Below are positions 1 to 55,493 of a DNA stretch of 64,000 bases, in pieces. The notes under the pieces are model-generated. The model saw only the letters and a list, made by a program, of their open reading frames with translations. It was not told the origin of the DNA and did no database searches. Position 1 is the stretch's first letter, and each line of letters opens with the position of its first letter. This stretch comes from an uncultured Chloroflexia bacterium. Its GTDB lineage: Bacteria > Chloroflexota > Limnocylindria > Limnocylindrales > CSP1-4. The translations under genes and the position numbers were made by a program. The stretch is from positions 1,392,553 through 1,456,552 of the forward strand of contig CAVWSL010000015.1 of NCBI GenBank assembly GCA_963757765.1, given 5' to 3'.

Positions 1-263
1 GCCACTGAGACGGCCGAAGGCCGAGCCGAATCATCAGACGTCTCTGCCGCTCTGACTAGGAAGAGGGCCGCCCGTCTCGCCCGGTAGCGTCGTCCCGGTC
101 ATTGCCGAGTCCCCGGGCTCGAGGGTGTTGGGCGGCGCCCCGGTCGGGCCATTCGGCACTTGTCCGGAGGGTGACGATCCTGTTCTGCTGTCGCTGTCGG
201 GGCACGAACAACGGCACTCGACACGGGTGTCGCCTTCGCTGCCCCGCGGAGGAGGTCCCCGTC

Positions 264-1358
264 ATGCGCAGAGTCCCAGCCCTGGTGGTCGCGTTCGCGA
301 CCGTGGCAGCCTTCCCGGCCGTCGCGGCGGTCCCGACGGCGGCCAGATCCTGCACCTACACGTTCCCCGACGGGGGTGGCACGTACCCCCTCAACGGTGG
401 CATCGTCGTGGACGGTGATGTTATCTGCGGTGGCCCCGGCAACGATATCGTCGACGAAATGGCCGGAGGCACATTCGACGGCGGTGATGGCGATGACCAG
501 GTCGGGAGTGTGCTAGGTGGCACCTTCAACGGCGGCGACGGGAATGACGGCACAGAGGCCATGGCCCGGGGCACCTTCAACGGCGGCGCCGGCAATGACG
601 CGGTCTATAACCGCATGGGCGGCTACGCCACCTTCAACGGCGGCGCCGGCGATGACCACGCGGGCGAACTCGACGGCGGCAGGTTCGACGGCGGTGACGG
701 CGCCGACAATATCCACGACATGCGCGGCGGCACGTTCGACGGCGGTTCCGGCAACGACTGGGTGGCCAACCTGGAGGGCGGCACGTTCCACGGCGGCACC
801 GGCGATGACCGCGTCTTCTATGTCACGGGCTACTTCCAGGCCGACACCACGTTCGACGGTGGGCCCGGCGATGACTACGTCAAGGCCGGCATGAATGGCG
901 GCACCTTCAACGGTGGCCCCGGCGATGACTACGTCAACGCAGTGGACGGCATGAGCGGCGGCACCTTCAACGGTGGCCCCGGCGATGACTACGTCAACGC
1001 AGTGGACGGCATGACCGGTGGCACGTTCAATGGCGGCAGCGGTCGGGACCATGTCGCGGGCCTGATCGACGGCACGTTCGCCGGTGGGTCCGGTCGCGAC
1101 TACGTGACCACGATGACCGACGGCACGTTCAACGGGGGCTCTGGTCGCGACTACGTCAGGACCATGAACGGCGGCACGTTCAACGGCAGGAGCGGGCCGG
1201 ACCACGTCCGGACCATGAACGGCGGCACGTTCGCCGGGGGCTCCGGTCGCGACCACGTCCGGACCATGAACGGCGGCACGTTCGCCGGGGGCTCCGGTCG
1301 CGACTCGGTCGGCACCTATGCCGGCGGCACCTGCTCGTCGGTGACCGGTTGCCACTGA
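264..1358 (+). CDS. Secreted RTX-like calcium-binding beta-roll repeat protein (paralog 1)
   Basis: ATG at 264 is preceded by GGAGGAGG. The N-terminus is a signal peptide (MRRVPALVVAFATVAAFPAVAAVP), followed by the conserved CTYTFPDGGGTYPLNGG motif. About 16 tandem ~18-aa units GGTFNGG(P/S)G(D/N/R)D.V are of the GGxGxD RTX nonapeptide type. The longer ORF starting at 102 is an upstream extension with no signal peptide. Confidence 0.7.
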   Translation: MRRVPALVVAFATVAAFPAVAAVPTAARSCTYTFPDGGGTYPLNGGIVVDGDVICGGPGNDIVDEMAGGTFDGGDGDDQVGSVLGGTFNGGDGNDGTEAMARGTFNGGAGNDAVYNRMGGYATFNGGAGDDHAGELDGGRFDGGDGADNIHDMRGGTFDGGSGNDWVANLEGGTFHGGTGDDRVFYVTGYFQADTTFDGGPGDDYVKAGMNGGTFNGGPGDDYVNAVDGMSGGTFNGGPGDDYVNAVDGMTGGTFNGGSGRDHVAGLIDGTFAGGSGRDYVTTMTDGTFNGGSGRDYVRTMNGGTFNGRSGPDHVRTMNGGTFAGGSGRDHVRTMNGGTFAGGSGRDSVGTYAGGTCSSVTGCH

Positions 1359-1523
1359 GACGGCCGAAGGCCGGGCCGAAGCATCAGACTCCTCTGTGGC
1401 ACCTGAGCCGGCGGTAGCCCGCCTCGCCCCTCCGCGCCATCCCGGCTCGGCCGGGTTCCGACGGCAGCGTGCTGAGCGCTATCATCCGCGCCCCGGCGCC
1501 GCGCACCCGAGGAGGTCAGGACG

Positions 1524-1760
1524 ATGGACGAACTCGAGCAGTTGTGGGCAGCCGAGGATGCCGCGGGAGCCGTGCTCCGCGAACACATCCTCACCGGCTT
1601 CGCAGTCTCGAGGGGAGACGACCTCACGGGCGCCATCGGCAAGGCATCGGTCGACCCGTCCTCGGCCGAGTACCAGGCCCGGCACGCCGAGCTCCAGGAG
1701 GCACTCGACGAGGCGCGACAGGCATCGCGCGCCAGGGAGCGCGACATCCTGCGGTACTGA
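1524..1760 (+). CDS. Hypothetical small acidic protein (78 aa) between RTX-like paralogs
   Basis: Strong RBS GGAGGTCAGGACG-ATG. The ORF is compact with high third-position GC. I recognise no family. Confidence 0.45.
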   Translation: MDELEQLWAAEDAAGAVLREHILTGFAVSRGDDLTGAIGKASVDPSSAEYQARHAELQEALDEARQASRARERDILRY

Positions 1761-1937
1761 CCCTCGTTCGCCGCCGGTCGTGCAGACGCGCTCTGGAGCT
1801 GGCCCGTGCGCCAAGCAGCGTGGCCCTGGAGGGCCGGTGACCAAGCCATCGGTGGCGGGTCCATACTTCGCCGTGGTCGGCACCGCGGAGCCCGCCCTAC
1901 CCGAGCGGCGCGGCACCGGCCGAGGAGGATCAGCGCC

Positions 1938-2765
1938 ATGCGGAGAGCGGCAACGTTCCTGGTAGCGGTCGCGACGATGGCGACACCCGCGGCCATCACG
2001 CCGACGTTGGCCGCCGCCGCACATTGCACCTACACCTTCCCCGACGGAGGGGGCGCATACCCCCTCAACGGCGGGGTCGTGGTGGCTGGCGACGTCCTCT
2101 GCGGCGGTCCCGGCGATGACCATGTCCCGGCGATGACCGGAGGCCGGTTCTACGGCCGTGGCGGCGATGACCGGGTCGGGGACCTGTGGGCCGGCAGGTT
2201 CGTCGGGGGTCAGGGAGACGACGGGGTCCAGGACTTCCACGGGGGGACCTTCGATGGTGGCCTCGGCGACGACTACTTCAACAATATGTTCGGTGGCACG
2301 TTCGATGGCGGGCCCGGGAACGATGGCGGGAAGGATGACACCGGCACCGATGGCGTCCAGTACGGGGGCGTGTTCCGCGGCGGCCCCGGCAACGACGGGC
2401 CGTTCCGGATGAACGGCGGCATCTTCTACGGGGGTGCGGGCGACGATGGCCCCTGGCAGATGAACGGCGGCACGTTCTTCGGCGGTCCTGGTGACGATGT
2501 CGCGGGCGAGCACCAGAACGGCGGCGCGTTCTATGGCGGCAGCGGCGAGGACTTCTCCCGGGAGATGTACGGAGGCACCTTCCACGGCGGCAGCGGCAAC
2601 GACCGCGTGGAGCTCCTGCGTGCTGGTGGCACGTTCTACGGCAACGCCGGCAACGACGACGTCAGCTTCCTCTCGGGCACCTTCTTCGGCGGACCGGGAA
2701 GGGATACGGTCGCGCACTACAACAGCGGAGGGCAGTGCCACTCCGTCATCGACTGCCCCCGCTGA
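1938..2765 (+). CDS. Secreted RTX-like calcium-binding beta-roll repeat protein (paralog 2)
   Basis: ATG at 1938 is preceded by CGAGGAGG. It has a signal peptide (MRRAATFLVAVATMATPAAITPTLAAAA) and the same N-terminal CTYTFPDGGGAYPLNGG module as paralog 1. The GG.G.D repeats are more degenerate: GGTFDGG.GDD, GG.FYGG.GDD, and so on. Confidence 0.7.
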   Translation: MRRAATFLVAVATMATPAAITPTLAAAAHCTYTFPDGGGAYPLNGGVVVAGDVLCGGPGDDHVPAMTGGRFYGRGGDDRVGDLWAGRFVGGQGDDGVQDFHGGTFDGGLGDDYFNNMFGGTFDGGPGNDGGKDDTGTDGVQYGGVFRGGPGNDGPFRMNGGIFYGGAGDDGPWQMNGGTFFGGPGDDVAGEHQNGGAFYGGSGEDFSREMYGGTFHGGSGNDRVELLRAGGTFYGNAGNDDVSFLSGTFFGGPGRDTVAHYNSGGQCHSVIDCPR

Positions 2766-3254
2766 CGAGCGAACATCGATACGCAGACCAGGAGTTCCCG
2801 GCTGTCCGGACGACGAATGCACACCGATCGGTAGCCGTCGTCGGAGCGGCCCCGGGGATCGGCATCCGGCCAGATCCCCAGCTCTTGAGGTGCCGGCCGA
2901 CAGCGTCCGCCGCACCGCGGGCTCCGGCCGACTATGCTGCGAGCCCCGCCCTACGATGCAGAAGGGTTCAGGCGTGGCAGAGCCCGATCGGGACGAGGTC
3001 CACCGACGCCTCGCCGCGCGCCGCCGGCGCGCGGCGAGGCGGCGCCGTCCTGCCGGGACTCATCGCCATCGCGGTGGGCGCGGTGCGCGGGCAGGGTGGG
3101 GACGTGCTGTCCATGGTCCTGGTGGGTGTCGGTGTCGGCGTGACCGCGGCCGGCATCATCGGCATGGCCGGCGAGTTCGCCCACAAGGGACCTGGCCCGA
3201 CCGATGCCCCGCCGACCCCGGTCGATGCCGGTCGCCCGATGTCCACCGCGCCCG

Positions 3255-4283
3255 TCACTTCGCGACAGTGAGACCCGCGATCGGGATACGACGCGCGGCA
3301 TAGGGCGGCTCGTAGATCACCTCGTCGATGACCGCGTCCTCGGATCGCGAAGCCGACGACCCCCGATGTCCGGTCATCAGGGCCCATCCGCCGGTTCGCG
3401 ACCTCCCTGGTCGGCGCATCCGGCGGGAGGGCGATCTCGGTGTATCCCCACTGGTTGCCGTCGGTGTCATGGAGCACGATGAACCAGGGCGCGGACTGGA
3501 ACGGCTTGGCGGGGTCGGCCTCGAAGACCACGTCGACGAGCACGTAGCGCAGGTCGGGATCGAGCGTCGCGCCGGTGGGTGGGCTGCCGGGGGCCAGGCT
3601 GGTTCCCGGCGCGTCGGGGGCCAGCGACGCCTGGGGCACGAATGGCGTGAACGGATCGGTGATGCCGCTGACCGTCAGGGTGCCCGCGGCGCTGCCATCG
3701 GGGCTGACGTCGGAGACGGGGGTCCCCAGCGCCGGCACCTCGTTGGGCAGCTGGTCGAGGATCGTGAGCAGACGGGCACCGGTCTCCGGCCGATACTGGA
3801 TCGTGGGGTCCTCGGCAGGCTGCGGGCTGTACAGGATCTCATCGATGACCGCATCCGTGGGCAGGGCGTATCCGATCACGCCTGTCACCCGGTCGCCGGG
3901 TGCGAGTCCCTGGTCGCTGACCGAGGGTGGCAGCGCATCGGCCGGCCGATTGATGTCCGTGGCTCCCAGATGAACCCGTCGCTGTCCTGGATGACGATCC
4001 GCGAGGGTTGTGCATCGAAGGGCTTGTCCGAGTGCGCCTCGAACCGCACCGTGAGTTCCACGTACCGCTGATCGGGACCTGGCGGGTCGTCGGGAGTGAA
4101 GCCGGTGAACGGATCCTCGATCTGGCGTACGGTGATGGTGCCGGCCTGAGTGCCATCGCTGGTGGAGTATTCGAGGACCGCATCCGGTCCGCCAGTGGCA
4201 CCCTGAGCGAGCATCTGGCTCGGGCTCCCGGCCGACAGCCCGAGCGCGAGCAGGAGCGGCACGGCGGCGGCAGCGCGGGACAT
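3255..4283 (-). pseudogene. Secreted triple-repeat beta-sandwich-like protein, possibly DUF4352-like, disrupted by two frameshifts
   Basis: The signal peptide is MSRAAAAVPLLLALGLSAGS at 4283. Three ~110-aa repeats are recognisable (…TITVRQIEDPFTGFTPDD…RIVIQDSDGFIWEP / …TLTVSGITDPFTPFVPQ…FIVLHDTDGNQWGY / …DAVIDEVIYEPP…). They are spread over three frames: ORFs 3885-4283, the middle of 2968-4353, and 3255-3470. The frame changes map to about 3965 and 3365, each just after the conserved aromatic of repeats 1 and 2. The site near 3365 sits at a C5 homopolymer. Confidence 0.5.
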
Positions 4284-4992
4284 GAGACCAGGACCTCCAG
4301 GGATGCGACGGAGACTTCAGGCACCTAACGGACGCCGGCGCCGAGGCTACCACGACCTTCCGCAGACCGATCCCGGTCGCGGCGATTGTCAGTGACGCGA
4401 GTCAACACGCGGACAGACACACCTGATCGGCAGCCGCGCGGGACTATGGCCGCCTGCAAGGCATGGCAATTTGGGGTAGTCCTGTGCCTAGTTATCGACC
4501 CCCCCGCACCCGTTGACGCCGAGCGCCAGAGACCGCACCCCCCAGGTACTCGCCTAGACGCCGACGGGATACCGTCCGGAATATGAAAGGTAGCCTTGAC
4601 CCGCTCAAACTGCTCCGGCGCCAGACGATCGAAGCGACACCGCAAACCGGACTTCGTTGCGATCCCGCTTCGGAAGGAGGTGACCGGCAGTGACCGCACT
4701 CGCGATCTGGTCCTCCTCGTGCTGTTCGCGCTGATGGCTATCGCGGCGTTCGCAATCGGGCGATGGTATGAGCAGACAAATCCGTCTTCGGCGGTCGCTC
4801 GGAGCGACCCGCAGCGAGTGGCACGCTCGGCGTCGACCCGCTCCGGAACGACGGCTAGGACGGCCTGGCTGCGACCCCGTGCGCGAGGGAATCGTGCGCG
4901 GTAGCAGGACCCTGAACCGCACTGGGTTCCATGGAGACTCTGGGCTGCCCTTGGTTCGCATCGCGGAACCTGGCAAGCCCGGTGAGACACGG

Positions 4993-5755
4993 CGTCAGGC
5001 GATGCTCTGTCCCTCGACCTCCTTGGGCTTGTTGATCCAGGCGGGGCCGGGCAAGGCTGGCGGCTCCGGCGGCTTGTTGACGAACCGCTCGGGGTGCGCA
5101 GCGTAGGCGGCGTCCAGGACCAGGGCACGTTCCGCCCGGACCGTGGCCGCGGTGCCGAAGGGGACCGACGCGGGTGTGTGCTAGCCGATCCCCGAATGGC
5201 GGTGATGGTGGTCGCAGGTGTCCAGGAACCCGCCTGCGAACTGCCGCGCATATTCGGTCGAACCGAAGCTGCCGGGGAAGTCCGGGCCGTACTTGATGGT
5301 CTTGAAGGCCGCCTCGGAGTAGGCGTTGTCATTGGACACGTGGGGCCGGGAGTGGGTCCGACCGATGCCCAGGTCCGCGAGCAGCTGGGATGCGGGCTTG
5401 GAGGTCATCGCGCTGCCCCGGTCGGCATGGATGACCAGACGCCCGGGCTCCGCCGGACGGTGGCTGGCCACCACCCGTTCGATCCAGTCACAGACCACCT
5501 CGGCACGCTCACCCTCCTTGACCATCCAGCCGGGGCTGTAGCGGCTGAAGATGTCGAGCATCACGAAAGCGTGTCGAGGACGGTCGCCCGCTCATCGGGC
5601 GAGAGCGCACGGGCCGGAGTCCGGCGGGGGGCGGGCGGACCGAGGCGCGGGCCGAGAAGGCCCCGGTAGTGGGTCGCGCGAGCGACATCGAACGCGGCGC
5701 ACGCGGCGCTGGTGCCCACCACGGGCGCCAGCTCGCTGACCGCAGAGGCGATCAA
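4993..5755 (-). pseudogene. IS3-family transposase OrfB (DDE/rve) remnant
   Basis: Contains the SNDN.YSEA.FKT.KY and HHHRHSGIG-x-HTPA motifs typical of IS3-family OrfB. It is interrupted by an in-frame TAG at 5181 and a frame break near 5561-5564. Confidence 0.55.
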
Positions 5756-6108
5756 CGCCCGTCCTTCGGATCGGCGCTCCCGAGGGAGAGCTCCCGCAAG
5801 AGCGCCGAGACGTTTCCCTGGACGGCGATCACCTTCTCGGCCCGCTCCAGCCGCGTGCGGAGCCGCTCCACCTGTCCGCGCAGGCGCTCGTTCTCGGCCT
5901 CCAGCGGATCGGCGGCCGGGCCCCGGGACGCCGAGGGCCTGAGCCTAGGCCGCCGGAGCCGGCGACACAGTGGCTGCTGTAGAGGCCGTCGCGGCGGAGC
6001 AGCGCACCCGGGCGCCGGGCGTCGTGCAGCGCTCGAGCTCATCGAGGATGGCCGCCTTTTAGGCCGCCGTGAACACTCCGCGCTTGGGTCGCTCGACTAC
6101 CTCGGGGT
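5752..6108 (-). pseudogene. IS3-family transposase OrfA remnant
   Basis: C-terminal coiled coil/leucine zipper (ENERLRGQVERLRTRLERAEK) typical of IS3 OrfA. The upstream HTH part is in another frame and contains an in-frame TAA (…GVFTAA*KAAILDE…). Confidence 0.5.
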
Positions 6109-6877
6109 CCGGGTCCTGGTCCATCGGCCAAGGATGCGTCGGCCGAAACTGGTGCTGGTGAGATGGCCATGGGAAGTCTCCTTCCCGCCCTCGGTCAGTG
6201 ATCAGTGGAGGTCGGGTGTCTCACCGGAGCCTGGCAGCGAGGGGAACGGCTCCGGGAGCCATCCGCAGAGCGACCGGGGCAACGTCTGGGCCCACCGGCT
6301 TTACGACGACATCTGGTCAGGCGCGGATCGTTAGGGCCCAATGACCCGCAGCTCCTCGGCCGCGACCGGGACTGACCAGCCGAGCCGGAGAGCATGAATC
6401 GCGAGCAACAAAGTCGACTGTACTCGTTGATGTGCATCGAAGGACTGGCCGCGAGAGTGGCCCGCGCATTCGGGCTTCGACAACCCGAACGTCGCGGGGG
6501 AGACTCTTGTTTGTCAACGACGTGCCGGGTGACTACAGCCAGGACCCGCCGCCTTCACCATCAGGGCTATCCTTGACGGCTCCGGGTTTGCGCCCGAAAT
6601 TTGCCACCGGACCGACTGCCCCGGCGTCACCCGCCAAGGCTAGCAGTGGCTTGGCGAGGATCTCGTCGCTGCTGCGCGTTGGACGGGAACCCACCGAGCC
6701 CTGAACCACTGCCCCGTCGAGGCATGGACCGAGATCGCTGGGACGAAACGCCGTGGAAAGATGCCCAGTCCGATAGCCTCGCAGCGCGACAGCGCCGTGG
6801 CACTTCGTCGTCCGTCTGTGCAAGGCATTGGGGGCTGCTCGGCATTCCCGTCAAGCCAGACCGGCCCGAACAAACGA

Positions 6878-9527
6878 CTATTGCTTGGAGATGCGGACGT
6901 TGCCGCTAAACGTGATAGAACCCGAACCAGGGAAGTCCGCGGTAGTCGCCGTGTCCGATACGTTGTTCCGGACGATCACAGTGGCCGTGTTGCGAATGGT
7001 CATGCGGAGCCAGTCGCCAGTCACGTTCTCGACGCTGATGGATGGCTTGGTATTGGTCGAATAGCCTGCTGCTGCTACAGCGTAGCAGGTGCAGTAGGCA
7101 CTGGCCGCCGACAAGTCGCCCGTGTGTCGAATGTCGACGCCATCAACGACACCGCGGATGCTGGCCGCACCTGTCGCGTCGTTCACCTCGAAGTCGATGG
7201 CATGTAGGCCTGTGTACGCCACGTGGCCACCACGAATTGTGACCTGACCCGCCACTGGCGCAATACCATTGCGGGACGCGCGCTCGATGTCTGGATTGCT
7301 GATGACGACTCCTGTGGCTGGCTGGTTGTTGCCCGTCGAGTAACCCACATAGATGCCGTCGCCGCGGGTATCACGTGTTACCGGGCGGTTTAGGGTGATG
7401 TCCGATCCGCCGTCAACCTTGATGCCTGATTCCCCCTGGTTACCGCTGTCCCAAGCGTAGCCCGTGCCATAGACGGTCGGATCGTTCAGTACCACGTTGG
7501 TCGATGTCACCACACGCAGGATCCCACTTGCTCCCTTAAGGCTGCCCTGAAGCCGTGATCCTCGGAAGTCGACCGTGAGACCAGTTGCGGTGAAGGACAG
7601 CTGGGTGACCTTGTAGATGCCGTTCTTGGCCAGCGCCACGCGCTCGCCGTTGTGGGACTGGAGGAACGTGCGGAGGGCCGATGTAACGTCTGAGGCGCCA
7701 GTGGCGTCCCCAGCGAAGACCGCCGCATAGGTCGTAGCCGGGGTCGGCGTGGGCGCTGGGGTCGGCGTCGGCTTGGGCGTGGGCGTCGGCGTGGGCGCTG
7801 GGGTCGGCGTCGGCTTGGGCGTGGGCGTCGGCGTGGGCGCTGGGGTCGGCGTCGGCTTGGGCGTGGGCGTCGGCGTGGGCGCTGGGGTCGGCGTCGGCTT
7901 GGGCGTGGGCGTCGGCGTGGGCGTGGGCGTCGGCGTCGGCGTCGGCGTCGGCGTGGGCGTGGGCGTCGGCGTCGGCGTCGGCGTGGGCGTGGGCGTCGGC
8001 GTCGGCGTCGGCGTCGGCGTGGGCGTGGGCTCGGGGTCGGCGTCGGCGTCGGCGTGGGCGTCGGCGTCGGCGTCGGCGTCGGCGTGGGCTTCGGTGTCGG
8101 TGTCGGTGTCGGGGTCGGCGTCGGGGTCGGCGTCGGCGTCGGGGTCGGCGTCGGGCGTCGGCGTCGGCGTGGGCTTCGGCGTCGGGGTCGGCGTCGGGTC
8201 GGGGGCGGCCTTGGGTCGCCGGGGTCGGGGTCGGCGTCGGGTCGGCGGCCTTGGGTGCCGGCGTCGGGGTCGGCGTCGGGTCGGGCGGCCTTGGGTGCCG
8301 GCGTCGGGGTCGGCGTCGGGTCGGCGGCCTTGGGTCCGGCGTCGGCGTCGGCGTCGGGTCGGCGGCCTTGGGCGTCGGGGTCGGCTCGGGGGCTGGCGCA
8401 GCTTCCGATGGTGCATCGGTTACGTGGAACGTCCGCGTGAGCAGCGTGTTCCCATCGGCGTCGCGAGCCCCAATGGAGTGGTCCCCGACCGACGCGTCGT
8501 CGGGGACCTGCATCGTGACCGTGTCGCTGCCGCTTGCGCTCGCGGAGTAGCTCGGCATGCCGTCGATCGATCCATCGAACTCGATGTCGCCCGACGTTCG
8601 ACTGCCGAGACCGGAGAGGGAGAGCTTGACCGTCGTCGACGCCGGTCCGACATCGGTGGATAGCTTCATCCGGGGTGTGACTCGTGGCGTGGCCTTCGGC
8701 AGGGGCGTCTTGGTCACGACACGAGGTTTGGGCGTGGCGATGACGCGAGAGCGTGGCGCGACCGACAGGCTGTCGACCGCCAGGTTGTCGAGGGTGACGC
8801 CGACGGGAGCCGTTGTGGCATCAGTCGCGAGGGTGGTGCGCACGCCCACCTTGCCGGCCGCTGTCAGGGCGTTGCCGGGATCGGGGCGCTTGAGCTGCCA
8901 TCCGGCCGGTTCCGCGCGACCCGCCGTCCAGACTCGCGCCCGGAACATGACCGGGCTGCTGCCGCTGACCCGCGCACGGACCGCGATCCCGCTGCCCGGG
9001 CTGACCCGTACGCCGTGGACTCGGATCTCGTTCCCGATCACTCGGACCGAGCCCGACCGGACGCGGATCACGCTCAGCCAGACCGATCCGTCGTCGGCGA
9101 TCCGCGTCCGGATCTGGTACTGGTTGCCATTCCCACGGCTTCGGAAGACGGCCGAGACGGTCACGCCACCGCGATCGGCGACCTTTGGGATGCCGACACG
9201 GAACTTGACCACGGCGTCGCGGACGGAAAGGCTCGACAGCATCATGTCCGCCTGGGCGCCGGGACGCTTGAGGGTGATGCGGCCCTTGCCGCCAGCGACA
9301 CGGAACGCAACCCCACGTCCGGTGGTCTGATAGCGCCCACCCTGGTCAGCTTTCCCCCAAGCCGCGCTCACGGCGCGGGAGAACGAGTCGCGCGCGACCG
9401 TGGTCCGTCTCGAGGGCGCGGCGAACCCCTCGAAGGGTACGGCAAGCGCCACGGCGGCGATCACCACGAGCACCATCAGGCGCATCGTCCGGACATAGAT
9501 GTAGTCAGACAAGTGCAAGCGACTCAC
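6878..9527 (-). CDS. Secreted multidomain protein: N-terminal beta-sandwich/Ig-like domains, PT-rich linker, C-terminal right-handed beta-helix (pectate-lyase fold); frame drifts inside the linker
   Basis: ORF 7536-9527 starts with a signal peptide ([24 protein letters not shown]) and carries the globular domains. ORF 6878-8416 carries (PT)n/[13 protein letters not shown] and then a beta-helix-like C-terminus (…NGIYKV…[15 protein letters not shown]…[11 protein letters not shown]…VISNPDIE…). The two ORFs are in different frames and meet within the 7740-8420 GTCGGC/GTGGGC hexanucleotide array. At least two frame changes occur between 8030 and 8420. Confidence 0.55.
7740..8420. repeat. Pro-Thr-encoding hexanucleotide microsatellite, (GTCGGC/GTGGGC)n on +, about 110 units
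   Basis: Direct reading shows near-perfect tandem GTCGGCGTCGGCGTGGGC. All three minus-strand frames read low-complexity PT/AD/RR, and the antisense reads GVGVG. Confidence 0.85.
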
Positions 9528-10136
9528 GGCTCGCTCCCTTCGTGGCCAGGGGGGCGCTGGGGCGCCTCCTCCGGTGGGGTCCGTCCTGTGCTGAGGTCAT
9601 AGGAACGCGACGACTGTCGTCAGAACCTGACAGGCCGGGCCCGGCCAGACATAGAGGGCTTATGGTCCGGTGGGGCCGGTACGCATCGGCTGCGGTGCGG
9701 TGACGTCGCCCAGGGCGAATCGGAGCCCGTGGTTGCCGGATCCGGGTGGGGACCTCTGGTCGTGGTCGCCGCTTCGGCGACCGGCGGGACACCCGCCAGG
9801 ACCGACCGTTGGTGGGTGTGGCACGCACGCACCACCTCCCCACCAGGAGTACGTCCCCCGTGACGCATAAGTACTAGTCAAGAACCGCGTAAGGGATTAC
9901 CGTTGATACCTCAGCGCATGGATGCCCAGCACAGCCGTCGGTCCCAGAAACCGTCGGCATCGCTCGCTCGAAACTGGCGGGATGTCCACGGCAGGTCATT
10001 TGGTGACCCCAGTCGCGCTGGATAGAGGGCACGGTATTGACACTCCGCGACTCCATACGAACCACCATCGGGCGAGGCGCCGGGCCGGTGCCGACCGCGA
10101 CACCTGCGCGGCCGATTCACGCGCCCGGACTTCGAT

Positions 10137-12089
10137 ATGCCGGTGCGCTCACTCATCGGTCGAACGCTCGGCCGGCTCCGCGGGCGGCACCTGTTCCTGC
10201 TGGATTCCCTGGGCATCAGCGTGGGCGCTTATCTCGCCTTCGCGTTCCGGAACGTCACGGATGCGCCGGACTGGATGGTCGGGTTGGTGCTCATGGTCGT
10301 CGCCATCCACGCCCTGGTCGACATGCGCCTGGGCCTGTACACCCACGATTGGCGGTTCGCAAGCGTTCCCGATCTGGCCCGGATCGTCGTGGCTATCGCG
10401 CTCGGGACACTCATCGCGTGCGCTTCGGTGACCCTCGCGGCGGCCCTCGATCCTGGGCTGGCGCGGGTACCGCTCTCGTCCTGGCCTGTGGAACTGCTCG
10501 TCGCCCTGGCCGTCGTCGGCGGGCTGCGATTCGGCATCCGCGCCGCATTCGATTTTGCGATCGACCGACCTGGCAACGGCCATGCGGCACTGCCGACACT
10601 GCTATATGGGGCTGGCCGAGTCGGGGTGATGATGGCTCGGTCGGCACAGCGGACCCCCGCGGCCGGCGTGAGGCCAGTGGGCTTCCTCGATGATGACCCC
10701 CGGCTGGCCGGCACGACCGTGGCGGGCTTGCGGGTCTACGGTGGGCGTGACAACCTCGACGAGGCCGTCCGCGCAACCGGGGCCGAAGCCCTCCTGATCA
10801 CCGCGTCCAATGCCTCGGGCGCCGTGGTACGGCAGATCATGGAGGCCGCAGGCGCGCATAAGTTGGCCGTCAGGACCGTGCCCTCGATGGTCGAGTTGCT
10901 CGATGGCAGCGTGGACGCGTACCGAGTCCGACCCGTCCGGGTCGAGGACCTGTTGCGGCGCCCGACCGCGACCGAGCACGTGCCCGAAGTCGCGATCGCC
11001 TTCGCGGGCCGAACGGTGCTCATCACCGGCGCTGGCGGGTCGATCGGCTCGGAGCTGGCTCGACAGGTGCTCGCGGTCGGTCCCAAGCGTCTCATCCTGC
11101 TGGATCGGGCTGAAAGCGCCCTCTTCGACATCCATCGTCAGTTGCTGGAGACCCACGTCGAGACACCGGTCGAGATCGTGTCCCGCCTAGGCAATGTCGC
11201 CAGCCGGAACGCCATCGCGCGCATGATCGCGGCCGACAAGCCCGACGTGATCCTCCACGCGGCCGCCTACAAGCATGTGCCCATGATGGAGGAACACCCG
11301 TCCGATGCCGTGCACGTCAACATCGGCGGCACCGCGTCGTTGCTCGATGCCGCAGCGGCCGCAGGTGTCGAACGCTTCGTGCTCGTGTCGACCGACAAGG
11401 CGGTCAATCCGTCGAGCGTCATGGGCGCCAGCAAGCGCATCGCCGAGATGCTGGTGGCCGACACCGCACGGCGCAGTGGCCGCGCCTATGTGTCCGTCCG
11501 GTTCGGGAACGTCCTTGGCTCGAATGGCAGCGTGGTGCCCATCTTCAAGGACCAACTGGAACGCGGCCTGCCATTGACGATCACGCACCCCGAGATGACC
11601 CGCTACTTCATGACCATCCCGGAGGCATCCTGGCTCATCCTGGATGCAGCCGCGCTCGGTCAACCGGGCGACCTGTTCGTCCTGGACATGGGCCAGCCGG
11701 TCAAGGTGCTGGATCTCGCCAAGGATGTGGTCCGGCTCGCGGGGCGTGACCCCGAGACCCAGCCCATCGAGTTCATCGGTCTCCGGCCCGGAGAGAAGCT
11801 CCATGAAGAGCTGTTCTACGACACCGAGCGAGTCGTACCGACCAGCACACCCAAGGTCATGCGCGCGATCTCCGACGAGCCTCCCACGGACGTCCGTGCG
11901 AGCGTCGGGCGCCTCATGGAGTTCGCGACAGGGGACCACGACGAGGAGCTCAAGGCGGAGCTCCGGAGATGCGTGTTCAGCAAGCCGTCGGCCGACGTGG
12001 ACGCAGTGCCCCTGACAAGCTCCTGGGTGATCCCGGTTCACGGCAGTGGTGCCGAAGATAGGGTGGCAGTGGGCCGAACGAGCCTCTAG
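10137..12089 (+). CDS. Polysaccharide biosynthesis protein CapD/WbpM/PglF-like (membrane-anchored UDP-sugar 4,6-dehydratase, SDR family)
   Basis: N-terminal region has about 4 TM helices. Rossmann motif VLITGAGGSIGSEL. The conserved …ILHAAAYKHVPMME… and …FVLVSTDKAVNPSSVMGASKR…RFGNVLGSNGSV.P.F… are typical of CapD/WbpM. Confidence 0.85.
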   Translation: MPVRSLIGRTLGRLRGRHLFLLDSLGISVGAYLAFAFRNVTDAPDWMVGLVLMVVAIHALVDMRLGLYTHDWRFASVPDLARIVVAIALGTLIACASVTLAAALDPGLARVPLSSWPVELLVALAVVGGLRFGIRAAFDFAIDRPGNGHAALPTLLYGAGRVGVMMARSAQRTPAAGVRPVGFLDDDPRLAGTTVAGLRVYGGRDNLDEAVRATGAEALLITASNASGAVVRQIMEAAGAHKLAVRTVPSMVELLDGSVDAYRVRPVRVEDLLRRPTATEHVPEVAIAFAGRTVLITGAGGSIGSELARQVLAVGPKRLILLDRAESALFDIHRQLLETHVETPVEIVSRLGNVASRNAIARMIAADKPDVILHAAAYKHVPMMEEHPSDAVHVNIGGTASLLDAAAAAGVERFVLVSTDKAVNPSSVMGASKRIAEMLVADTARRSGRAYVSVRFGNVLGSNGSVVPIFKDQLERGLPLTITHPEMTRYFMTIPEASWLILDAAALGQPGDLFVLDMGQPVKVLDLAKDVVRLAGRDPETQPIEFIGLRPGEKLHEELFYDTERVVPTSTPKVMRAISDEPPTDVRASVGRLMEFATGDHDEELKAELRRCVFSKPSADVDAVPLTSSWVIPVHGSGAEDRVAVGRTSL

Positions 12090-54080: not shown

Positions 54081-54668
54081 ATGCAGGACCGAGCGGAGGA
54101 TGCGTTGGACGACGAGCACCCGGGCCGGGAAGATGGGCCACTGGCCCTGGTCGTCGACGACCTCGTCCTTCGCCCGTGGCGAGCGACCGATGTCGAGGCG
54201 GTCCTGGAAGCCTGCCAGGACCCGGACATCGGGCGCTGGGTGAACATCCCACAGCCGTTCGGTGCAGCCGAGGCTGCCGCGTTCGTGGAGGGCGCGATCC
54301 GCATGTGGCGCGACGGGACGGGTGCTGCGTTCGCCATCGAAGACACGCCGGGGTCGCTGCTGGGGGCGGTGACCCGCTTCGGCCCGGATGGCCACACCGC
54401 CACGGTCGGCCTCTGGCTGGTGGCCGCGGCACGCGGCCGGGGCGTCGGCACCCGGGCGCTCCGGCGATTGGTGGACTGGACGTTCTCGACCACGGATGTC
54501 ATCCGGATGGAGGCGTTCATCATGGCCGGCAACGACGCTTCGGACCGCATGGTGGAACGGGTCGGCTTCCGGCGCGAAGGCCTGTTGCGCGCTTGGGACC
54601 TCGATCGCAGCGGCAGGCCTGTGGACTGCGTCGCCTGGTCGTTGCTTCGAGGCGAGCTGCCGAGGTAG
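54081..54668 (+). CDS. GNAT-family N-acetyltransferase (RimJ/RimL-like)
   Basis: …LVLRPWRATDVEAVLEA…, …RGRGVGTRALRRLVDWTF…; 195 aa. Confidence 0.8.
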   Translation: MQDRAEDALDDEHPGREDGPLALVVDDLVLRPWRATDVEAVLEACQDPDIGRWVNIPQPFGAAEAAAFVEGAIRMWRDGTGAAFAIEDTPGSLLGAVTRFGPDGHTATVGLWLVAAARGRGVGTRALRRLVDWTFSTTDVIRMEAFIMAGNDASDRMVERVGFRREGLLRAWDLDRSGRPVDCVAWSLLRGELPR

Positions 54669-54800
54669 GCCGACCGGACCGGGCCTGGTAGCGTCCGGAG
54701 GATCGGGGCAGGACCGGCGCAGCGCACAGAGCGTTGGGGGTCGATCCGCTGGAGCTGCCGGTGCAAGGCTCACGAGTGGCGAGTGGCGCAGAAGCGGTCG

Positions 54801-55376
54801 TCACTGTGGTGCCAGAACGCAACGCTCGAGCACGATCGACACCGATCGACACCGATCCGACCAGGACCTTCGCCGGCATCGTCTGGTGCGTTTCGACATC
54901 GGCACCCAGCAACCGCGTCGCGAGCCAGGCCCTCCCGGCACGGGTGACCGCCTCCGCGCCCCTGAACGAGACATCGCCCTGCAGTTCCAGCAGGATCGCG
55001 TCCCGGCCCCGGGCGGACAGGTGGGCGCGTCGAGTGCGGCCGCATAGACCAGCGGCTTGGACAACGACTGGAGCGTGAACTGCTGACGGGTGTCGCCCGC
55101 CTCATAGATGGCTCCATCGACCGTCGCGACGCAGATCCCGAACAGCTCGGGATCCATCCCCGCGAGTTCCGGGATGTAGGTCGCGACCGCGCCGTCGCGC
55201 AGCGGGACATGACGGTCGTGGATCCGCTCCAGCCACGCGGCGACCGGTGACGGCGACGAGGCCGGTGGGCCGTGGGATCCGCGCGCGAGGACGTGCGGCA
55301 CGGTCAGCTGCGGCGGGATCGGCGCCAGGGGCGCGCGCCGCATCGACTCCCCGTATCCATCCTGGGGCAGGGTCAT
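54801..55376 (-). pseudogene. glsA: Glutaminase (GlsA) N-terminal remnant
   Basis: …GAVATYIPELAGMDPELFGICVATVDGAIYEAGDTRQQFTLQSLSKPLVYAAALD… is collinear with glutaminase A residues about 20-110 and covers only 55029-55376. Downstream, none of the three minus-strand frames continues the family, and the gene is less than half its normal length. A CGATCGACAC duplication lies at about 54836. Confidence 0.5.
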
Positions 55377-55493
55377 GGCCGGGGAGGCTAGCGCCCGGCC
55401 CGACCCCGGACAAGGATCGCGTGGGTGGCGCACCCGAAGCGGTCGACAACCGGCTCCCGGTCGCAACCCGGCACCGGCAGGCCGAGGTCCGCG

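Follow-up and report, generated by a model that had tools for sequence, protein, structure and literature searches.

The gene at 3255-4283 on the minus strand of the window (the whole 64,000-nucleotide stretch of DNA that was analysed) is one ordinary gene for a predicted Sec-exported protein with two tandem DUF4352 (YjhA/MPT63-like) β-sandwich domains, and its apparent split is probably an assembly artefact due to local errors in a long-read consensus, a reading to which we give a probability of about 0.65. Both frame breaks are real features of the assembled sequence; nevertheless, we infer that sequencing error rather than mutation caused them and that the source assembly was built from long reads. 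This reading is favoured in part because intact relatives, and also the 99.15%-identical sister assembly, are single-frame at both sites.

The gene as assembled

Three-frame translation of the whole gene (3255-4283, minus strand), which encodes a predicted secreted tandem DUF4352 protein, runs through frames 0, 2 and 0, such that two frames are used and not the three different frames of the original prediction. That prediction was right in seeing a putative secreted-protein ORF with frame changes: an ORF with a predicted signal peptide begins at the ATG at 4281-4283, and its homology-supported reading changes frame twice. An intact Shine-Dalgarno sequence, GGAGG, was read from the sequence 10 nt 5' of this ATG (4294-4298, minus strand), and the N-terminus, MSRAAAAVPLLLALGLSAGSPSQMLAQG, has the charged, hydrophobic and AxA layout of an export signal without a Cys, as read from the translation. 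A promoter and terminator scan of 2800-4800 gave no match.

All three segments lie on the minus strand. Segment 1 (3968-4283, frame 0) comprises the signal peptide and domain 1 through W106, and as assembled this frame extends to a stop at 3885. Segment 2 (3346-3964, frame 2), which was placed by translation, homologs and GC3, runs from the remainder of domain 1 across the linker into domain 2, as far as I314. Segment 3 (3255-3337), placed by translation and homologs, is again in frame 0 and carries the final strands of domain 2 (DAVIDEVIYEPPYAARRIPIAGLTVAK) in a stretch of 27 codons that ends in the TGA stop at 3255-3257. The shifts amount to -1 nt at the first site and -2 nt at the second, net -3, and the end segment thereby regains the starting frame. 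Once 3 nt are inserted, the repaired frame is free of stops and encodes 343 aa without interruption.

A GC3-periodicity hidden Markov model, run over the whole window and independent of homology, puts a change of frame on the same strand at 3961/3962 and the end of the coding signal at 3342. GC3 coding periodicity is seen in every segment, and the Shine-Dalgarno sequence, the ATG and the signal peptide are all preserved. A 461-codon open frame also covers the entire locus (2968-4353, minus strand), but only because a GC content of 70% makes stop codons scarce; a portion of this frame has been deposited as the protein P0016.

The two break sites

The sequence was compared with L001 (ERZ25039539 contig_58867), a contig from an ENA metagenome with a Flye-style name, and all three of the bases missing from the window are present there. 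At the first break (3965-3967, minus strand), where the original prediction had put a switch near 3965, alignment to L001 and to the ortholog protein identifies one G missing from a run of four: on the gene strand, the window reads TGGGAG (TGG GAG) and L001 reads TGGGGAG (TGG GGA G). The L001 reading agrees with the W-G-A of the protein of the closest relative, P0001, and the peptide IWGATDINRP is found in both P0001 and P0015. The nearest GATC is 32 nt away from this G4 run, and a search for a shared non-GATC motif that would explain the first site found none.

The second break lies at 3338-3345 (minus strand) and not near 3365 as had been proposed. Here alignment to L001 identifies two separate 1-nt gaps, C3 to C2 and A2 to A1, which lie one base apart and begin 2 nt 3' of a GATC (3343-3346); on the gene strand the window reads ATCCGAGG, versus ATCCCGAAGG (I-P-K-D) in L001. 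The C5 run (3360-3364; G5 on the minus strand, which is the gene strand) that had been named as one of the break sites is not a break site. Alignment shows it to be identical in L001, and it is translated straight through as T-S-G-V-V-G, matching the homologs, with the second break 20 nt further on.

Two modules, one fold

Rather than three modules of some 110 aa, as first described, the protein has two, module 1 (residues ~33-180) and module 2 (~185-343), which are 45% identical (BLASTP E 3e-32) and which correspond to two modelled β-sandwiches. A DAV(I/L)(D)E..Y motif occurs in three copies at the DNA level (4171-4186, 3842-3857 and 3325-3340) and is probably the source of the three-module view. 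The breaks had also been described as falling at the same position of consecutive repeats. However, the first directly follows W106, at the end of the β-strand 104-106, with W279 as its module-2 counterpart, whereas the second directly follows I314, at the end of the β-strand 305-315, with L141 as its module-1 counterpart; within the module, the two sites differ by 35 residues. Given two modules and this offset, the 'unusual coincidence' of same-position breaks disappears. In the model, both breaks coincide with the ends of core β-strands. Neither fragment could form a complete domain if the breaks were real.

The suspicion that this is a DUF4352 protein was correct. The repaired protein matches DUF4352 (PF11611) at residues 64-157 with 35 bits and E 2e-8, above the gathering cut-off of 25.9 bits; module 2 by itself reaches 16 bits (E 0.015), under that threshold. 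A profile search against PDB sequences gave marginal matches only, the best being 3cfu (E 0.11).

An AlphaFold2 model was made for P0001, the 92%-identical ortholog, and not for the window sequence; it consists of two β-sandwiches with a mean pLDDT of 80. A Foldseek search with this model matched 3cfu_B (probability 1.0, TMt 0.56, TMt being normalised to the target) and 1lmi (probability 1.0, TMt 0.65), and each domain taken separately matched 3cfu and 4r4g with probability 1.0; for the single domain, these three are the nearest structures that have been solved. Vibrio cholerae RbmA is a weak structural match as a tandem arrangement. The Bacillus subtilis lipoprotein YjhA (3cfu) and YcdA (4r4g) share with the protein described here the absence of catalytic motifs, and the N-terminus here has the layout of an export signal; they differ from it in that here there are two tandem domains, a Pro-rich insert in domain 2 and no lipobox Cys. 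MPT63 (1lmi), a secreted antigen of Mycobacterium tuberculosis, has a comparable Ig-like β-sandwich of ~130 residues but has one domain, belongs to another Pfam family and is only 15% identical in sequence. By analogy of fold alone, and with low confidence, an extracellular non-enzymatic role in binding or scaffolding may be proposed.

Relatives in protein and genome collections

Among 5.8 billion protein clusters, only 14 relatives were found, all of them metagenome- or MAG-derived, indicating a rare subfamily. Most have 315-351 aa and share the two-domain layout; every one is single-frame. The closest, P0001, is intact, has 343 aa and is 92% identical, and reads IW-GATDINRP across the first site and GFAI-PKDAVIDE across the second. 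The original prediction had itself pointed to orthologs as a means of judging the breaks, and at both sites the orthologs as well as the 99%-identical strain are single-frame.

The 90% cluster of P0001 has two further members. P0016 (306 aa) is the window's frame-2 ORF, continuing into out-of-frame sequence, and comes from a 2,954,713-bp contig (NCBI, ENA) that is evidently the source of the window; P0015 (439 aa) comes from L001, a contig of 37 kb. The window's frame-0 fragment is annotated in the source genome as P0017 (132 aa). In a collection of 15 billion proteins, P0016 and P0017 were found on one contig only, this evident source contig, where the gene is listed as two proteins that look unrelated.

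Searching the GTDB species genomes for this gene gave 434 pattern matches, none of which was confirmed, and a scan of JGI metagenomes for the DNA of the first site in both alleles gave no match. Exact-protein look-ups of P0001, P0016 and the window's acetate kinase, LLM oxidoreductase and sarcosine-oxidase-like protein returned no record. In a phosphoketolase scan the best matches, at 75-76% identity, were to MAGs of Chloroflexia, Limnocylindria and Solirubrobacterales, which places the species outside the collection scanned. The metagenome that yielded L001 also contains a related contig, L002, on which two intact paralogs with tandem DUF4352 domains, P0005 and P0002, lie back to back in divergent orientation (8730-11023); the pair is within a glycosyltransferase/MurJ cell-envelope cluster and adjoins an IS21 element.

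Differences between the two assemblies

L001 aligns to window positions 7912..1 with 99.15% identity, 26 mismatches and 41 gap columns. Outside an IS3 remnant (described below), the two sequences differ by five single-base indels (G4 to G3, C3 to C2, A2 to A1, A2 to A1 and G4 to G3, going from L001 to the window) and 11 substitution events, and within the gene by four indels and three substitution events. All five indels lie within 3273-4707; the stretches 1-3270 and 6130-7912 are free of them. When the differences in 1 kb were polarised with P0001, one substitution and three deletions were assigned to the window lineage, and two substitution events and one insertion to L001.

The insertion in L001 is an extra C before a GATC at L001 4610-4612, near the 3' end of the gene. 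It frameshifts the C-terminus and gives rise to the 439-aa P0015, with ~110 codons of out-of-frame sequence. In the alignment, the GATC at the corresponding window position (3273-3275, minus strand) is odd in both assemblies, as the window has GGTC (D to G) and L001 has C+GATC. A further 1-nt gap relative to L001 was found by alignment at 4707 (plus strand), 1 nt from a GATC. It falls in a small ORF (4690-4904, plus strand) with a good Shine-Dalgarno sequence (GGAAGGAGG) and a GTG start at 4690, which in L001 reads VTALAILVLLVLFALMAIAAFAIG... and has a full transmembrane helix; the gap appears to leave the helix in a different frame from this start.

Outside the IS, 7 of 14 difference events lie no more than 4 nt from a GATC, compared with 6.7% of alignment columns, giving a binomial P of 1.3e-5 that is to be read as a post-hoc value, the GATC hypothesis having been formed after the differences were seen. 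The same proximity test found no enrichment for 15 other 4-mer palindromes or for CCWGG. The distance to the GATC is 2 nt for the second break and 1 nt for the gap at 4707, and the differences at 3273/3275 and 2967 are inside GATC. This suggests that GATC is methylated in the source organism and that the methylation caused basecalling errors. For nanopore assemblies and reads, A<->G miscalls have been described, as have errors no further than ±5 bp from methylated bases, among them those of GATC (PMC12392509; bioRxiv 10.64898/2026.01.14.699587).

The window also carries two paralogous genes for secreted proteins (264-1358 and 1938-2765, both plus strand) with GGxGxD-like 'GGTF(N/D)GG.G.D' repeats, the former of which contains tandem repeats of 51 to 153 nt at 848-1330. 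A Pfam search of both found no match in either, and both are the same in L001 apart from two downstream substitutions.

The surrounding sequence

Genuinely decayed DNA is present close by. An IS3-family copy at ~5181-6100 (minus strand) is dead, having an in-frame TAA in orfA and an internal deletion, both common to L001; its orfB (rve domain, E 9e-14) passes from ...VLDTLS straight to MLDIFSRY, with ~100 codons missing in between. Within the IS3 copy, the window and L001 are separated by an indel block of ~34 nt and by additional 1-nt indels at 6006 and 6058. Elsewhere, a glutaminase remnant (54520-55493, minus strand) matches only positions 1-55 of the 286 of its Pfam profile, at 54801-55493; there is a frame change after the matched part and too little space for the remainder ahead of the next gene, and the gene thus seems to have been truly truncated or partly deleted, which a 1-nt error would not explain.

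The next gene upstream on the minus strand (9519-6880) encodes a large secreted protein whose signal peptide and N-domain share a frame and whose right-handed β-helix is read in a second one. Between these two parts runs a Pro-Thr linker of 650 nt, (ACGCCG)n (repeat at 7730-8414), in which the PT frame changes five times, and the L001 contig stops inside this repeat, at window position 7912. In the homolog P0034, a single ORF carries both the N-domain (57% identity, E 3e-51) and the β-helix. These five non-triplet indels in a hexanucleotide repeat, amid clean coding sequence, look like poor consensus and not biology. The β-helix domain (6880-7740, minus strand) belongs to a large paralogous family with 119 matches, several per genome, and the source contig carries two more copies, P0022 and P0101; the N-terminal partners of the β-helix differ (fn3/Pur_ac_phosph_N, CAP, SLH), and some of the matches are labelled Chloroflexota, a hint at the phylum of the source organism. 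The lowest GC of the window, 0.659, is that of segment 6001-8000.

From 10 to 64 kb there are almost no frame disruptions, nearly all coding segments end within a few bases of a stop codon, and ORFs of 760-1345 codons are uninterrupted.

Discussion

Three explanations had been offered at the outset: a pseudogene, phase variation and homopolymer indel errors in the assembly. The last is the one favoured here, the first is its rival and the second fares poorly. In the case of error, the consensus would have dropped three single bases, one G out of four at 3965-3967 plus a C and an A beside the GATC at 3338-3345, and the restored sequence would be GGGG at the first site and CCCGAAGG at the second. 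Nanopore-type consensus errors favour short homopolymers and methylated motifs, which the missing bases would fit, and the errors may be confined to a poor stretch of ~3-9.5 kb next to the dead IS3 copy and the long tandem repeat. As with known nanopore methylation and homopolymer errors, the changes are single-base, biased towards deletion, located in short homopolymers or near GATC and, inside GATC, of the A<->G type. In contrast to typical nanopore consensus errors, they are unusually clustered, at 3.2-9.5 kb, and the other 54 kb look clean. Among the closest genomes of the species collection, many are Flye+Medaka MAGs (MFD) made from nanopore data only, with contig naming as in L001; such MAGs have been described (PMC12313526).

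A serious rival is that the gene is a genuine and very recent pseudogene, its strain having lost three bases, perhaps in a small decaying segment beside the dead IS3 copy, in which case it would now give just a truncated 132-aa secreted fragment. It is possible to argue for this, albeit as the less likely case: the ORF is broken relative to intact orthologs, neither assembly has a living version of the adjoining IS3 copy (shared TAA, shared internal deletion), the truncated glutaminase at 54.8-55.5 kb shows that gene remnants are tolerated, and the frameshift of L001 elsewhere in the same gene, if real, would suggest relaxed selection on the gene in this population and could mean that it is dispensable. 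Moreover, the other genes at 10-64 kb look intact and the assembly is not error-ridden overall, such that the putative error rate must be strongly local. Genuine decay in this genome, in the form of the IS3 remnant and the truncated glutaminase, counts against error, as do the shortness of a G4 run for a homopolymer error under modern chemistry and the 32 nt that separate this run from any GATC. As a guess, low or mixed-strain coverage near the IS and the long tandem repeat would account for a local cause. Natural divergence produces about one indel per at least ten substitutions, and the three deletions to one substitution of the window lineage are far from this ratio; error is favoured because indels are so far in excess of what natural divergence gives. 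It is favoured, too, because the differences cluster at GATC with the other palindromes clean, a pattern without an obvious mutational basis, and because the second site requires two losses 1 nt apart, unlikely as independent mutations. The signs of relaxed constraint that a pseudogene would carry are not seen: there are no nonsense codons, the Shine-Dalgarno sequence, ATG and signal peptide are intact, periodicity is full and there is one substitution, and this otherwise undecayed state of the DUF4352 gene again favours error. So does the restriction of the frameshifted products P0016 and P0017 to one contig of one assembly. Lastly, the PT repeat next door, where the frame changes five times, points to a poor local consensus and speaks against decay.

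The remaining explanations are much harder to sustain. Phase variation, in which slipped-strand changes in short tracts would toggle a surface protein, might be suggested by the predicted secretion or surface exposure of the product and by the length of the G run at the first site, which varies between two near-identical strains. However, this is very improbable: the tracts are only G3/G4, C2/C3 and A1/A2, that is 2-4 nt, against roughly seven or more units in known contingency loci, three separate events would be required to turn the gene on, and the gene's real homopolymer, the G5 at 3360-3364, does not vary. Programmed ribosomal frameshifting or other recoding could in principle yield a full-length protein from the assembled sequence, given the net shift of -3 that leaves the opening and closing segments in one frame, but is the least credible of all, as the homologs, the 99%-identical strain included, are single-frame at both sites, a slippery heptamer is absent from both, and two different types of shift would be required in one gene. 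The indels close to GATC might alternatively be real scars of repair, left as 1-nt changes by error-prone end joining after a GATC-specific restriction-modification system cut the host DNA; the candidates would be those at 4707 and 3273, immediately 5' of GATC, and at 3340/3341, just 3' of GATC. This is a highly speculative scenario to which we attach little weight, though if true such scars would progressively inactivate non-essential secreted-protein genes in the IS-flanked segment.

Should the frameshifts be real, the locus would be nothing more unusual than a DUF4352 pseudogene of recent origin. Given consensus error, which is the reading preferred here, one intact gene would stand in public collections as two bogus proteins, P0017 and P0016 (the latter about half out-of-frame), to which the sister assembly would contribute a bogus 439-aa fusion, P0015. 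The practical value of the finding is therefore one of quality control, as a flag on the annotation of this gene and on GATC-adjacent 'variants' in both assemblies.
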